DNA of 57,692 bases from contig JAGHAF010000034.1 of NCBI GenBank assembly GCA_021161675.1, positions 1-57,692 on the forward strand, written 5' to 3'. This DNA is from Planctomycetota bacterium. GTDB taxonomy: Bacteria; Planctomycetota; Brocadiia; SM23-32. The stretch's first letter is position 1. Every line of letters begins with the position of its first letter. The notes under the pieces were generated by a model, which did no database searches, was not told the origin of the DNA, and saw only the letters and a program-made list of their open reading frames with translations. Position numbers and translations under genes: made by a program. This document shows, piece by piece, positions 52,740 to 57,692 of this stretch.

Positions 52740-54608
52740 CTACTCCGTGCGTTCCAGGCGCGCCGCTATTGCGCGGGCCAGGCGTTCTGATATTCCCGGG
52801 ACAGTTCTCAGCTCCTCGATAGAGGCCCGCCTGATCTTGTTGAGTCCCCCGAAGTGTTCCACCAGGCGGCGGGCCTTTTTGGGGCCGATGCCGTCGACGT
52901 CCTCCAGGGGCGATCTTGTGGCGGACTTGCGCCTGAGGAGGCGATGATACTGAATGGCGAAGCGGTGCGCCTCGTCGCGGATGCGCGTGATAAGACGGAA
53001 CCCGTAGGTGTCCTTCGGAACTTCGATCGGCTCGTCCCCCCCGGGCAGGTAGACGCGCTCGGCCTTCACCTGCCGCCCATCCTCAACGCGCGCTTTGGCC
53101 AGCGCGGCGACCGCCGCGGGGCGAATGCCCAGCTCCTCCAGCGCCTCCAACGCAGCCCCCAACTGTCCCCTCCCCCCGTCAACGAGGATCAGGTCCGGCG
53201 CCTCCGCGTCGCCCTCTTTCACCTTCCGATAGCGCCGCCGCAGCGCCTGGCGCATCATCCCGGGGTCGTCCTGTCCTTCGACGCCCCGTATCTTGTAGCG
53301 CCGATAGGAGGATTTGTCCGGCTCCCCCTCCCGGAACACGACCATTGAGCCGACGGCCTCACGTCCCTGGAGGGCCGAGATGTCGAAACATTCTACGCTC
53401 CGGGGCGGCGCATCCAGGTCCAGGATGCGTTGCAGTGACTCCATCTCCAGGCGGCGCCTCTGGACGCCCGCGGTGGCGGCCCGTTCGGCCTGCCGTGCGT
53501 TCTGATTCGCCATCTCGACCAGGCGGCGTTTCTGCCCTCGTTTGGGATGCAATATGCGAACCCGGCGGCCCTTCTTCTCGCTGAGCCAGGACTCGAGCAG
53601 CTCGGCGTCTTCCGTCTCCACGGGCGCAAGGACCTCCTCCGGGACGAACCGGTTGGCCCTGTAGAACTGGCCGAGAAAGCAGCGGAATATCTCCTCCCTG
53701 CTGTCCAGCGCCGCGGGGAAGCGGTAAGAGGCCACGTCCCTGACGTTGCCGTCCCGTACGAAAAGCGCCGCCACGCAGACATACCGGTCCAGGGCGCAGA
53801 TGCCGAACACGTCGCGGTCCACGTCCCCGGCGGATTCGGCGACGCGCTGGGACTCGACCGTCTGCCGGACGGCGCCGATGCGGTCGCGCAGGCGGGCGGC
53901 CAGCTCGAAGTCCAGATTCCGCGCCGCCTGCTCCATCTCGGCTCCAAGCCTGTTAAGCAGCTCCTCCGCATCCCCCTTGAGGAACATCACCACCTGGTCC
54001 ACGAGATCGCGGTATTGCTCCTCGGAGATCCCGTGGCAGCAAGGCGCGGCGCATTTGCCCATCTCGCCGTAAAGGCACGGCCGCCGGCGCGCACGGCACT
54101 CGCGGATGGAACACTTGCGTAGTGGGAATACGTCGCCCAGCGTCCGCAGCGTGCGGCGCGCCGCCTTCGCGCTGGCATACGGGCCGAAATACATCGCCTC
54201 GGGCTCGTCCAACCGGCGGGTGACGATCGGGCGGGGCCACGGCTCGGTCATGTCTATCTTGATGCTGACGAAACTCTTGTCGTCTCGGAAATTGACGTTG
54301 TATTTCGGGCGCATCTGCTGGATTAAGTTGCTCTCCAGCAGGAACGCTTCCTTCTCGGAAGCGGTCACGACCACGGCCACGTCTTCCACCTGGCCGATGC
54401 GCTCCGAGATGAGGCGCCTCTCCCGGCGGCCCTCCTGCCAGTAGCTGCGCACCCGCAGGCGCAGGTCCTTCGCCTTGCCCACGTAGATCACCTCGCTGCG
54501 GGCGTCCTTCATCATGTACACGCCCGGCCTGTGGGGCAGGTCGGCGATCTTCTCTTGCAGGCTGTGCGGCATCTGGATGGTCATCAGGTCACGTCCGAAA
54601 ATCACCAT
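52740..54608 (-). CDS. uvrC: Excinuclease ABC subunit C
   Basis: PGVY, IYVGKAKDL..RVRSY, FELAARLRD, ECFDIS, LVDGGRGQ, RDEAHRFA and HhH GIGPK. Alternative starts at 54584 and 54572. Confidence 0.96.
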   Translation of the reverse strand: MVIFGRDLMTIQMPHSLQEKIADLPHRPGVYMMKDARSEVIYVGKAKDLRLRVRSYWQEGRRERRLISERIGQVEDVAVVVTASEKEAFLLESNLIQQMRPKYNVNFRDDKSFVSIKIDMTEPWPRPIVTRRLDEPEAMYFGPYASAKAARRTLRTLGDVFPLRKCSIRECRARRRPCLYGEMGKCAAPCCHGISEEQYRDLVDQVVMFLKGDAEELLNRLGAEMEQAARNLDFELAARLRDRIGAVRQTVESQRVAESAGDVDRDVFGICALDRYVCVAALFVRDGNVRDVASYRFPAALDSREEIFRCFLGQFYRANRFVPEEVLAPVETEDAELLESWLSEKKGRRVRILHPKRGQKRRLVEMANQNARQAERAATAGVQRRRLEMESLQRILDLDAPPRSVECFDISALQGREAVGSMVVFREGEPDKSSYRRYKIRGVEGQDDPGMMRQALRRRYRKVKEGDAEAPDLILVDGGRGQLGAALEALEELGIRPAAVAALAKARVEDGRQVKAERVYLPGGDEPIEVPKDTYGFRLITRIRDEAHRFAIQYHRLLRRKSATRSPLEDVDGIGPKKARRLVEHFGGLNKIRRASIEELRTVPGISERLARAIAARLERTE

Positions 54609-54631: not shown

Positions 54632-54660
54632 ATCATAGTGGGAAGGGCCCGCCCTGTCGA
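54632..54660 (-). promoter_or_regulatory. Sigma70-like promoter for uvrC
   Basis: Minus strand TCGACA-N17-TATGAT. Confidence 0.6.
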
Positions 54661-54858
54661 GTTTTCCGCTTCATAGTCTCACTTCACCGGAGTGAAGCGC
54701 TCGTCCCGGTAAGTGCGAGCCTTGTGGCCGTGAGAACCTCGGCAGACCGACAAAACATGGTGATGGGCGGCGCGCCAGGGAACTGACGCAGCACAAAATG
54801 TCAAAGAGCAACCGTCGCCTGCGGCCGCCGGACGTGTCGGGATATCCGAGCCCCGCCA

Positions 54859-54884
54859 ATTTTTCGCCGACGTCGGCGAAAAAT
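54859..54884. repeat. Perfect 26-bp palindrome
   Basis: ATTTTTCGCCGAC|GTCGGCGAAAAAT with no spacer. Confidence 0.8.
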
Positions 54885-55274
54885 AGAGCAGGCGAACAAC
54901 AGATAAGTGAACAGGTGAAAACGGCCAAACGTTGCGGCTTCTACGGGATTCGTTGATAGTTCGGGAATCCACTCGTCCCGCAGGTGCGGCATCAACTGCT
55001 CAACTGGTCACCCGACCCGAATGAGTTTTGTTTTGTCATAGGCCCCCTCGCCTGAGATGCGCAGCCTGCTCTGCGGGCTGCGCTTGGATTAGAAAAACGG
55101 CCGCCGGCGCGGGAGCGCGCCACGTGCATTGTCTTTCTTCGTGGTCTTCAGCTTGCCCTCCGTAGCCTCCCGGCCTTCGTAGCCGAAGCTACTTCGGCGC
55201 AGTAGGCGCTTCGCAGAGCAGCATTCCATATTGGATATTCTTGTTGTCTTAGCATTTCTCAGTTTGGTGAAGTG

Positions 55275-55487
55275 TTACTCCGGATCATCAAAGCGAAGGG
55301 AGTGGCGCAGCACGTAATCGTCGAGGGCTTCGTGGTCCACCCGCCACGCCCTGCCCACTCGCATCCCGCTCAACTCGCCCCGCTTCAGCAGGCGCCTGAT
55401 GTGCTTAGGGCTGCAGTTGAATTGGCGGGCCACTGTGTCTACGCGCAGCCAGCGCGCGGACGGACATCCACAGGTCTCACACGGCAT
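55275..55487 (-). CDS. Excisionase-like HTH (HTH_17) protein with N-terminal CxxCxC
   Basis: WLRVDTVARQFNCSPKHIRRLLKRGELSGMRVGRAWRV; GGAG RBS. Confidence 0.85.
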   Translation of the reverse strand: MPCETCGCPSARWLRVDTVARQFNCSPKHIRRLLKRGELSGMRVGRAWRVDHEALDDYVLRHSLRFDDPE

Positions 55488-55558
55488 GATGTTCTCTCCA
55501 GTTCAAATTGTCCCGATGGAAGCAAACAGAACAGGCGCCAGGGGGCAGGGGTCAGGAG

Positions 55559-55945
55559 TCAGAAAAAAACATCCGCTCTTGCCACTTGCTTCCTGTATCC
55601 TGCATCCTCCTTCGTGGTCACTGCTATCTGATAGCTGCCTTCTGCCTCGTGCCTCCTGATTTCCGCCCCCCGCCTTCGTTCGCGCGCCAGCCGCGTTCGG
55701 AACCAGTCGGCCAGCCGGCGCGGCGCCTCCTGGAAGCCGCAGCAGATCGGGCAGTATCGCAGCGTGCGGCGGTCCAACCAGCCCGTGCCCCCGCAGGCCG
55801 GACAGCTCACCTCTTCAACCCCCAGCTTCTCGCAGAAGGCCTCCAGCATTAGCTTTCCCCGCAGCGATTTTAGCCCCCGGGGCATCCGCCGGGCGATACG
55901 GCTCACAATTATTATCGCTTCCTCCCGGTCCAGGCTCTCCATCAC
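55559..55945 (-). CDS. Hypothetical zinc-finger protein
   Basis: CPACGGTG...YCPICCG; GTGA-coupled to the gam stop. Confidence 0.7.
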   Translation of the reverse strand: MMESLDREEAIIIVSRIARRMPRGLKSLRGKLMLEAFCEKLGVEEVSCPACGGTGWLDRRTLRYCPICCGFQEAPRRLADWFRTRLARERRRGAEIRRHEAEGSYQIAVTTKEDAGYRKQVARADVFF

Positions 55946-56517
55946 ACTGCGCCTCCCGTCCGCGCGGGAGATTCCGTTCGCTCACGCCCTGCGGCGCACT
56001 CAGGCCACGCCGGGCGGGGAACGCACTGGAAGCTGTCCTGTCCTTCGACGAACTGAAGCCCGCAGGGATCGAGTTGGTCCTTCGTGATGCGGCCTTCCAT
56101 CACGGCCCGTCGCAGGCCGCTGCGGTCCGGTCTCTCGGTGATGCGAATGAACTCGCCGAGCTGCGCCTGGCGCATCCGGCGGCAGACCTCCTCGGGCCTC
56201 ATCTCGTCTTTGACGAGCACGCGGTGGGGCAAGCGGCGAAATCCTACCTGTCCGAATGCGGTTTCCAGGCTCTTGCGATCGTGGGGGATGAGGATTCGCC
56301 GGTTCTGGCGGCAATATCGCTCCAGGCCGGCCCGCATCCTTTGCAACCTGCCCTCCACGGAGGTGATGGGGCGCTCGTATCGCGCCTTCAACTGCTGCAA
56401 CTGGTCATCGAACTCGGCCTGGAGGAGCTCCAGTTCCGTCTGCGCCCGTGCGATGAGGCGCAGTTTGCGGGCCACGACGGCCCGGGCTATCCGTAGGGGT
56501 TGGTCGGCTGCATTCAT
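55942..56517 (-). CDS. gam: Mu Gam-like host-nuclease inhibitor (DNA end-binding protein)
   Basis: N-terminal coiled coil, then LERYCRQNR...RKSLETAFGQVGFR, FIRITERPDR and GLQFVEGQDSF. GAGGAG RBS before ATG 56517. Confidence 0.85.
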   Translation of the reverse strand: MNAADQPLRIARAVVARKLRLIARAQTELELLQAEFDDQLQQLKARYERPITSVEGRLQRMRAGLERYCRQNRRILIPHDRKSLETAFGQVGFRRLPHRVLVKDEMRPEEVCRRMRQAQLGEFIRITERPDRSGLRRAVMEGRITKDQLDPCGLQFVEGQDSFQCVPRPAWPECAAGRERTESPARTGGAV

Positions 56518-56593
56518 GGTAAGGCTCCTCACTGCGCCGGCAGGGATTTGCGAATCCGACAGGGTTCGGGTTCGCTATTCATCTGATGCGCCT

Positions 56594-56622
56594 ATCATAT
56601 GCGTTAGCGCCTGTATTGTCAA
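56594..56622 (-). promoter_or_regulatory. Strong sigma70-like promoter driving gam
   Basis: Minus strand TTGACA-N17-TATGAT. Confidence 0.75.
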
Positions 56623-56632
56623 GATAATTAGC

Positions 56633-56650
56633 GCAATAACATATTATTGC
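56633..56650. promoter_or_regulatory. Candidate repressor operator
   Basis: GCAATAA-CATA-TTATTGC inverted repeat between the two divergent -35 boxes. Confidence 0.6.
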
Positions 56651-56651
56651 C

Positions 56652-56680
56652 TTGCATTATGCCTTATAAGTCGCTATAAT
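56652..56680 (+). promoter_or_regulatory. Sigma70-like promoter driving the repressor
   Basis: TTGCAT-N17-TATAAT. Confidence 0.75.
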
Positions 56681-56736
56681 ATCCGTAATGGATACAGCGG
56701 GGACGCCCGCGCCGTCCACAGGAAAGGAGCCCGGAC

Positions 56737-57468
56737 GTGAATACCACCGAGGTCACGGGGAAAGCGCAGACGCCCGGAGAGCGCCTGCGCCAGGTGCGCA
56801 AGGAACTCGGACTCAGCCAATCTGAACTGGGCCGGCCCGTCGGCGTGACCCAGAGCAGCATCGCCGCTTACGAAAGGGATCGCCGCGAGCCGCCGCTCTC
56901 GCTCTTGCTCGCGCTGGAACACGAGTTCCGGATAAACCATGAGTGGCTGGCCACCGGCCGGGGAGAGCGCCTGGCCGGGGTGCGCCCCTCCTTGCCCGTG
57001 GTCGTCACCGACCCGCGTCAACTCCAGCGGCTCACTCGGCTGGAAGGCCACGATCAATTTTACGCCGTGCCATACCTGCGCGACCCCGCTGCGGCGGGGG
57101 AGGGCCTGATCATGGACGAGCAGGTGGCCGGATACTGCATAATTCACCGCCGGGTCGCCCCCCGGCCCGAAACGATTCGCTGCGTGCGCATCTCCGGCGA
57201 GAGCATGTTGCCAACCCTGACCGACGGGAGCATCGTGGCCGTGGACATCACGCCCATACCCCGGCGGGCGCTCCAGGGAAAGATCGTCTGCTCGCGCACC
57301 GCAGATGGCGGAGTGGTCATAAAGAGGCTGCGGGTGCGGGGCCACTACGCGCTCCTGCTCAGCGACAGCGAAGACCAGCAGCGCCACCCGCCCATCGTGG
57401 TTGACCTGCGGGAGATGGAGCAGCCCATCATCGGCCAGGTGATATGGGCCTGGGTTGACCTGCGCTGA
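56737..57468 (+). CDS. XRE-HTH plus S24 peptidase repressor (CI/LexA-like)
   Basis: HTH RKELGLSQSELG..VGVTQSSIAAYE, INHEWLATG, cleavage site AAAG, catalytic GESM and IKRL. AAGGAG RBS. Confidence 0.93.
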   Translation: MNTTEVTGKAQTPGERLRQVRKELGLSQSELGRPVGVTQSSIAAYERDRREPPLSLLLALEHEFRINHEWLATGRGERLAGVRPSLPVVVTDPRQLQRLTRLEGHDQFYAVPYLRDPAAAGEGLIMDEQVAGYCIIHRRVAPRPETIRCVRISGESMLPTLTDGSIVAVDITPIPRRALQGKIVCSRTADGGVVIKRLRVRGHYALLLSDSEDQQRHPPIVVDLREMEQPIIGQVIWAWVDLR

Positions 57469-57692
57469 GCCGGCTGCCCCGCTCGCAGACTCCGGGCTCA
57501 CCGCGCAGGCCTGCCTCCCCACCGCAAAACAAAACACGCGCGACACAAAGACAACGGAAATATCAACCACGAAGATACTCATGAAGATGCCTCCCATGAA
57601 GTGAGCCGTGTCAAGGCAAAGTCTCGAGGCTTCGGTGCGTGGAGTCGACCAATCTCCCATTCGCGCTGGTCCACGCCTCTCGGGGGACCGCA

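Follow-up and report, generated by a model that had tools for sequence, protein, structure and literature searches.

Phage-type repressors that serve the damage response of a bacterial host have been described in several settings. FddR of Francisella, as presented in the accessible part of its description (PMC13148647), is a co-opted, clade-conserved S24 repressor that lies divergent from its target and acts through a palindromic operator over a self-contained unit, sometimes with dinB nearby, and its induction has been demonstrated. The non-canonical S24 SOS repressors of Bacteroidetes and HdiR likewise join HTH_3 and S24 domains in phage-like proteins of the host damage response, and the Bacteroidetes repressors replace LexA and run a regulon according to the available text (PMC8565304). 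In the CTX prophage, a host LexA site and a phage repressor meet on one divergent promoter region (PMC3323433, in the part available), and bacterial Gam proteins have been described in the accessible portions of three papers as prophage-derived or located in defective prophages (PMC8705779, PMC1378119, PMC8987985). The present study concerns a four-gene unit, encoding a CI-like repressor, a Mu Gam-family protein, a Zn-finger protein and a helix-turn-helix (HTH) protein, that lies beside uvrC on a 57,692-nucleotide contig of an uncultured Planctomycetota bacterium (JAGHAF010000034.1; this whole stretch is referred to as the window). On balance, the unit appears to be a cut-down remnant of a Mu-like prophage that its host has kept as a probable DNA-damage switch.

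Francisella has no working LexA response according to the accessible text on FddR, whereas a canonical LexA is present in 28 of 30 relatives of the genome studied here and probably also binds at the locus. The FddR operator is GTG-N11-CAC, in contrast to TAY-N9-RTA at the present unit, where the cargo consists of Gam, the Zn-finger protein and an HTH_17 protein, where dinB is convergent and lacks an operator, and where induction is predicted from sequence. Unlike that of the Bacteroidetes repressors, which head a regulon, the operator found here is not enriched genome-wide. The unit shares with phage Mu and Mu-like prophages its Gam family and a repressor divergent from the gam-containing operon (as in L057 and L058, prophages from within the class), but it is single-copy, at a fixed site and under selection across 16 genera. 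The CTX counterpart RstR is not known to be a self-cleaving S24 repressor. CTX is moreover a mobile phage, whereas the present unit is immobile, LexA binding to it is predicted, and both of its locks would be cleavable through RecA. As with Ku/LigD, a DNA-end-binding protein could allow end-joining, which MuGam does with LigA; unlike the Ku/LigD case, none of the 31 family genomes searched yielded a Ku, and the window's genome has no ATP-dependent ligase (PF01068). A search of the open-access literature, with subscription papers outside its range, found no paper on this module, and the locus probably adds a Gam cargo and a probable second lock by LexA to the known co-opted phage-repressor damage units.

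Gene content of the module

The window is the entire contig C27 of genome G000 (2.47 Mb, 90% complete), and the comparison set comprised 30 genomes of the same Ca. Brocadiia family of uncultured Planctomycetota, or 31 counting G000. The module consists of the following genes.

56737..57468, plus strand: CI-like XRE-S24 repressor of 243 aa (HTH_3 and Peptidase_S24 both pass their Pfam cut-offs; phrog_4, E=4e-40)
55942..56517, minus strand: Mu Gam-family protein, 191 aa (PF07352, 85 bits vs cut-off 28.3, E=6e-24)
55559..55945, minus strand: Zn-finger protein carrying a pair of DnaJ-like CxxCxG motifs (4 Cys unchanged across 23 homologues)
55275..55487, minus strand: excisionase-like HTH_17 protein with an N-terminal CxxCGCP motif (PF12728, E=2e-11; TIGR01764)

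The preliminary description of this DNA had proposed an intact XRE-S24 repressor with an Ala-Gly site and catalytic Ser and Lys residues, with gam, Zn-finger and HTH genes downstream of the opposing promoter, and the family assignments bear out both proposals. The cleavage site is Ala120-Gly121, with catalytic Ser156 and Lys196; among full-length orthologues, Ala and Gly are conserved in 21/21 and Ser and Lys each in 20/21. RecA-dependent self-cleavage is therefore plausible, as predicted from these conserved residues, and recA is present in the genome. The repressor is not a LexA by TIGR00498 (29 bits vs a cut-off of 110.95) or by the LexA winged-helix domain, the canonical LexA genes of the same genome are located on contigs C121 and C105, and the comparison with GenBank phages gives only about 29% to lambdoid-type CI. 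The region C105:11356-14010 holds the second lexA, after which come two open reading frames (ORFs) without a Pfam family.

Because the gam ATG at 56517 is the conserved one, Gam is taken as 191 aa rather than 196. Its profile matches PDB 2P2U (E=3e-14), and the structural model (pLDDT 90) has a long N-terminal helix followed by beta strands; Foldseek with this model returned no significant match, and 2P2U was not among the results. Residues R70, G89, F93, R94 and R125 are invariant, and tblastn of Gam against GenBank phages gave no match. The start of the Zn-finger gene overlaps the gam stop, and the gap between the two genes is -4 to +15 bp in 19/20 relatives. The conserved core of the Zn-finger protein spans about 90 aa, and its tail is unconserved and enters a repeat. 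It has no Pfam match and its homologues give just sub-threshold ones, structure searches found no significant fold match that would place it among DnaJ-type or anti-TRAP zinc fingers (atlas matches were below 0.9), and its viral matches have the Cys motif alone in common with it. A homologue of the HTH_17 protein lies directly before terminase and portal genes in a viral contig (L240), and all four module genes are of phage type.

Conservation and descent

Gam is single-copy in 20 of the 30 relatives, two more lack gam and retain other module genes (G010 and G016), two have repressor fragments (G007 and G020), and in six no part of the module was found. At the 20 gam loci, the Zn-finger gene comes next in all 20 and the HTH gene is in place in 19, while 18 have the divergent repressor alongside and 18 have uvrC downstream, with the misses falling at contig ends (two contig breaks in the case of the repressor). 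Loci from metagenomes, some perhaps from the same organisms as the genomes, have gam followed by the Zn-finger gene in 11/11.

Since the contig ends 224 bp past the repressor, the question of phage flanks was addressed in the relatives. In a survey of 93 flanking ORFs, hand-selected from a crude ORF call, 70 had Pfam families, including those of sugar metabolism, transport, a tRNA synthetase, dinB and one insertion sequence (IS) pair; phage structural, terminase/packaging and phage integrase families were found in 0/93, with 23 having no family. Nine relatives have at least 5 kb of sequence beyond gam, and host genes are found there. Neither TnpA nor TnpB lies between repressor and gam, a gap of about 200-450 bp in 18 loci, and the family loci hold no ner, transposase or virion genes. 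A search of the window's genome for Mu transposase found none, and its control likewise matched nowhere.

The 21 family Gam proteins form one clade (support 98/99); the repressor tree is poorly resolved, with one long-branch outgroup inside the family. Pairwise distances of all four genes track those of UvrC (rho 0.49-0.56, p<=0.01, the kin not being independent). By a simple counting method applied to nine same-genus pairs of these GC-rich genomes, dN/dS was 0.12-0.36 for the repressor, 0.04-0.19 for the HTH gene, which is lowest in several close pairs, 0.22-0.30 for gam in 6/7 pairs, 0-0.69 for the Zn-finger gene and 0.11-0.13 for uvrC. The monophyly of Gam and purifying selection in most close pairs therefore indicate that the module is old and has been passed down vertically. 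In trees of RecA and UvrC the family falls into two halves; the module occurs in both, and the six genomes in which no part of it was found all belong to one, which points to one old acquisition followed by losses. The preliminary description had favored a domesticated module over a prophage, and this is now very likely correct, given the gene order conserved across 20 relatives without phage flanks, the selection and the single Gam clade. Elsewhere in the class, Gam in other families (G039 and G050) belongs to Mu-like prophages with repressor, transposase and terminase or portal genes, which together with the viral HTH homologue before a terminase gene supports a transposable-prophage origin; the module is likely the remnant of such a prophage, with all that once separated the repressor from gam, and all that followed the HTH gene, now gone.

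Several observations pull the other way. The six genomes that show no module part are 66-92% complete, and two others have only repressor fragments. Selection, which the preliminary description had named as a check on domestication, is purifying in most close pairs but not in all, as gam reaches 0.74 in one pair and the Zn-finger gene 0.43-0.69 in 3/8; gam is also the least conserved module gene, with a mean identity of 42%. Furthermore, gam has been deleted in G010 and G016, which keep the repressor and the HTH gene. Two separate deletions that leave repressor and HTH gene in place show that gam is not the sole selected part.

In G010 (L103:1-230 and L048:1-130), gam is a short stub, with IS-like ends on both contigs that have a 17-bp flank in common; an IS apparently sits between promoter and operon, and the repressor is on a long branch. 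In G016 (L049:615-2367), the Zn-finger gene is interrupted by a stop, the HTH gene and repressor are intact, recQ adjoins the repressor and uvrC lies on a different contig. Outside the family, gam and two small ORFs, one of them Cys-rich, lie beside dapF in two genomes of another family (L054:8376-9615 of G041 and L055:8232-9351 of G036), with a TTGACA-17-TAT(T/A)AT promoter of their own as well as an inverted repeat upstream. Phage families were not seen in the neighborhood, and this is possibly a second domestication of Gam. At a further locus (L059:1580-7477 of G038), an XRE-S24 repressor faces away from a set made up of two small ORFs, gam, a ParB-like gene and another Gam-like piece, and no transposase was seen among the ORFs scanned.

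Promoters and predicted repressor operators

The region between repressor and gam contains the following elements.

56594..56622, minus strand: gam-operon promoter, TTGACA-17-TATGAT (promoter scan; conserved in 21/21 loci)
56652..56680, plus strand: repressor promoter, TTGCAT-17-TATAAT (read in the sequence; equivalent in 19/21 loci)
56680..56694, over the repressor start site: strong 15-bp palindrome TATCCGTAATGGATA (TAY-N9-RTA), predicted auto-repression operator
56629..56643, adjoining the gam -35 box: predicted middle operator (5.1 bits here, weak in this copy)
56598-56612, in the gam promoter spacer: conserved operator half-site (TAnnCGTT on the plus strand)

The preliminary description had noted back-to-back near-consensus promoters, the leftward one some 75 bp from the start of gam. 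Both promoters hold in the relatives, where gam-ward promoters were located with a -35 anchor pattern and where the alignment of 19 intergenic regions places both promoters at a fixed spacing; the distance from the gam -10 box to the conserved ATG is 77 bp. The promoter scan, which found the leftward promoter, gave 3 sites vs 0.7+/-0.8 in shuffles and did not list the rightward TTGCAT-17-TATAAT. The palindrome that had been placed between the promoters is present in the window with perfect 7-bp arms at 56633-56650, but it is not an element conserved in relatives, and 4/4 other sequencing runs read C>T at 56634, which breaks one pair of its arms. This C>T fits the conserved operator better, and 4/4 other runs also read A>G at 56656.

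The palindrome at 56680-56694 scores 17.3 bits, the top score of the whole genome, and reaches at least 9.7 bits at the repressor start in 13/21 loci; the middle position reaches at least 8.8 bits in 11/21. These scores come from a 15-bp matrix trained on the same regions that it scores, a weakness of the operator case on account of which position rather than score is counted as evidence. The spacer site is a full TAY-N9-RTA in 6/21 loci, and the strongest palindrome lies partly outside the segment 56590-56685 that the preliminary description had marked out for a binding assay. Genome-wide, TAY-N9-RTA is not enriched (55 matches vs 58-71 in shuffles), and operators of at least 11 bits occur upstream of 1/26 recA (in a module-less genome), 1/30 dinB and 0/21 lexA genes. 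Because the operator motif is confined to this locus, the repressor is predicted to act locally. A role as LexA replacement or head of a regulon was considered and rejected, the operator being neither enriched nor, with few exceptions, present at recA, lexA or dinB.

In about half of the loci, a third sigma70-like promoter lies some 80 bp from the gam -35 box on the gam side, facing the gam promoter and pointing toward the repressor. It was scored in 12/21 loci, with about 10 sharing one position, and the window has a degenerate remnant of it, TTGCGA at 56548.

A candidate LexA box at the gam start

56576..56589, at the gam start site: 14-bp motif, candidate LexA box (TATnC-N4-GnATA; degenerate in the window)

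A 14-bp matrix was built solely from 19 lexA and 12 dinB sites. With it, the position at the gam start ranks first in 15/21 regions (mean 7.2 bits), non-overlapping positions score -0.5 bits or less, and the present locus's own site scores 5.4 bits, the top match in its region. A similar 14-mer follows the -10 box of lexA (19/21) and of a second dinB gene, and TATAC-N4-GTATA occurs in perfect form at the lexA promoters of the module-less outgroups G031 and G032; because of this recurrence at lexA and dinB promoters, the 14-mer is read as a probable LexA box. Sites with at most 2 mismatches to TATAC-N4-GTATA are found at the promoter start of gam in 10/21 and of the second dinB type in 10/18, compared with 1/19 for uvrC, 0/19 for the repressor and 0/22 for recA; L028 and L035 are among the loci where the 14-bp site is strong. 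Detracting from this reading are the 5 mismatches of the window's site to the strict consensus, the lexA promoters themselves (just 2/21 within 2 mismatches and 15 within 3), the overlap of the matrix with the -10 sequence, a genome scan that is weakly enriched (42 vs 20 and 27) with mixed targets, and no such site at the lexA of G005. Co-control of the gam operon by LexA is thus given slightly better than an even chance.

Three N4-spaced palindromes, TATAC-N4-GTATA, TGAAC-N4-GTTCA and GGTAC-N4-GTACC, are found at lexA promoters of the class and are candidate LexA boxes (loci L191, L193, L196, L203, L204, L206 and L207). ACA-N2-TGT was dropped as a LexA box, nothing of it being conserved in the module, and the N4 form was used instead. 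The second dinB gene (L165-L182) encodes a DinB with an internal insertion behind a near-perfect TTGACA-17-TATAGT promoter, then TATAC-N4-G(T/G)ATA. This subtype was not found in the window's genome, where a cassette of a small gene, dinB and a PHP gene (dnaE2-like) is located on contig C74.

Proposed mechanism and the role of Gam

In the proposed mechanism, the gam operon would be kept off by the CI-like repressor, which would occupy the TAY-N9-RTA sites next to the gam -35 box and across its own start and in this way limit its own production as well; a second site, at the gam start, would probably be bound by host LexA. Once RecA is activated, repressor and LexA would both cleave themselves, and with both locks opened through RecA it would take strong or prolonged damage for the operon to fire. 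Gam would cap double-strand ends, slow AddAB-type resection and limit chromosome degradation, the capped ends possibly allowing end-joining in a family that yielded no Ku. The HTH protein likely acts as a regulator further downstream. Such tight locking would be required on account of the block that Gam places on recombination repair. The conserved cleavage residues and the LexA-like box make damage induction plausible, and we consider it probable that the gam operon is damage-inducible.

The part played by Gam is less certain. According to bioRxiv 2022.02.08.479637, MuGam in E. coli holds resection back, prevents recombination repair, proves lethal when breaks are chronic and, with LigA overexpressed, promotes joining by LigA. 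The window's genome encodes two PD-(D/E)XK domains, which are located in long frames (about 1,070 and 1,140 aa) and would fit AddAB-type enzymes, and it has no RecC match and no ligase gene beside the module. The preliminary description had suggested DNA-end protection as the purpose of the unit, and this is left uncertain by the loss of gam in G010 and G016 and by the toxicity of MuGam under breaks in E. coli, where it lowers the survival of breaks (same source), a further point that speaks against a protective switch. The case for end-capping as the selected function of Gam is evenly balanced. A more specific proposal, in which Gam was recruited as a substitute for Ku, released by a two-key RecA switch of host LexA and captured phage CI under severe breakage alone, capping ends against AddAB, with joining by the NAD ligase and the Cys-HTH protein resetting or relaying the response, is tentative and rather doubtful; if true, the family would have an inherited, natural route of end-joining built on Gam, and the locus would preserve a stage in the absorption of phage switches by SOS networks.

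A host benefit of Gam, in end-joining or DNA uptake, has so far been shown or proposed mainly through expression in E. coli. The locus offers a natural, long-inherited and selected case of Gam, with predicted operators and lineages in which gam has been naturally deleted, so that four small proteins would be enough to test whether Gam serves bacteria as a Ku. The locus bears as well on the model that self-contained phage-repressor units are the source from which damage networks grow, in this case alongside a LexA that has been retained, and it suggests TATAC-N4-GTATA as the LexA box of the lineage.

Alternative explanations and the uvrC neighbor

The unit could instead have been kept for its regulatory core, with a damage-triggered relay from repressor to HTH protein controlling distant host genes and Gam a useful but dispensable passenger. 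PrtR/PrtN of pyocins is a comparable relay. The low dN/dS of HTH gene and repressor, their survival of two separate gam deletions and the viral HTH homologue in the slot before terminase genes all suit such a relay, but gam remains intact in 20 genomes across the depth of the family, mostly at 0.22-0.30, its stop overlaps or abuts the Zn-finger start, and the long repressor branch and IS-like end in G010 suggest decay after the loss of gam; we regard this explanation as unlikely. The inhibition of break repair by MuGam and its lethality with chronic breaks (bioRxiv 2022.02.08.479637) would fit a last-resort arrest or anti-phage device, in which Gam, once induced, would shut off repair by AddAB/RecA and bring badly damaged or infected cells to arrest or death, and double repression would suit harmful genes; in a variant, Gam would shield incoming linear DNA for uptake, a link proposed in the available portion of PMC1378119. 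PADLOC, however, gave no match for Gam or the Zn-finger protein and generic HTH matches only, defense genes do not cluster in the flanks, and a fixed site throughout a family is atypical of defense systems, which leaves this explanation distinctly improbable. Two further explanations depend on what adjoins the unit, including uvrC and its promoter.

52740..54581, minus strand: uvrC (Pfam; downstream of the module in 18/20 relatives)
54632..54660, minus strand: uvrC's own promoter, TCGACA-17-TATGAT (promoter scan; promoter there in 15/19 loci)

Coupling to uvrC, by regulation or read-through, had been raised in the preliminary description and would make the unit part of an SOS-coupled excision-repair operon whose derepression reads through into uvrC. 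The two share a strand, the gap between the HTH gene and uvrC is just 80-162 bp in 7/18 relatives, and no terminator was found between them in the window. Against this, gaps across the relatives range from 80 bp to 4.8 kb, often with unrelated genes inserted and several of these on the opposite strand, and in G012 and G016 uvrC lies apart from the module or on a different contig. Because uvrC has its own conserved promoter, no operator and inserted unrelated genes before it, coupling is not supported, the read-through operon is very improbable, and uvrC is probably a neighbor and ancient landing site rather than a target. That the contig stops so soon after the repressor, and that the four genes are phage-type, would also be expected if the contig end had truncated a prophage, recent or still functional, so that just its left end is seen, or if the unit were a neutral relic. 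Either reading is scarcely credible given the host genes in the nine relatives with long flanks, the purifying selection, the monophyly of Gam and the absence from the loci of TnpA and TnpB, which belong to the transposable-phage core according to the part of PMC8705779 available.

Neighboring dinB, repeats and contig ends

Within 10 kb of the module, dinB is found in 4/20 loci, but it is convergent and without an operator. Contigs from other sequencing runs span the module piecewise with 0-2 differences per piece, and an extension of the contig by means of them was abandoned, as it gave no reliable continuation beyond 57692. Two joints skipping the module (55046/55048 to 57565) were rejected as evidence of excision, their sides being just 25-27 bp inside repeats. 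The contig end matches repeats on C19, C72 and C115. The tail of the Zn-finger gene and the gap between the HTH gene and uvrC consist of genome-wide REP-like repeats, several families of which lie at 54760-55200, 55530-55620 and 57560-57692 of the window and recur on many contigs, frequently at their ends, and a perfect 26-bp palindrome is located within this repeat zone at 54859-54884.

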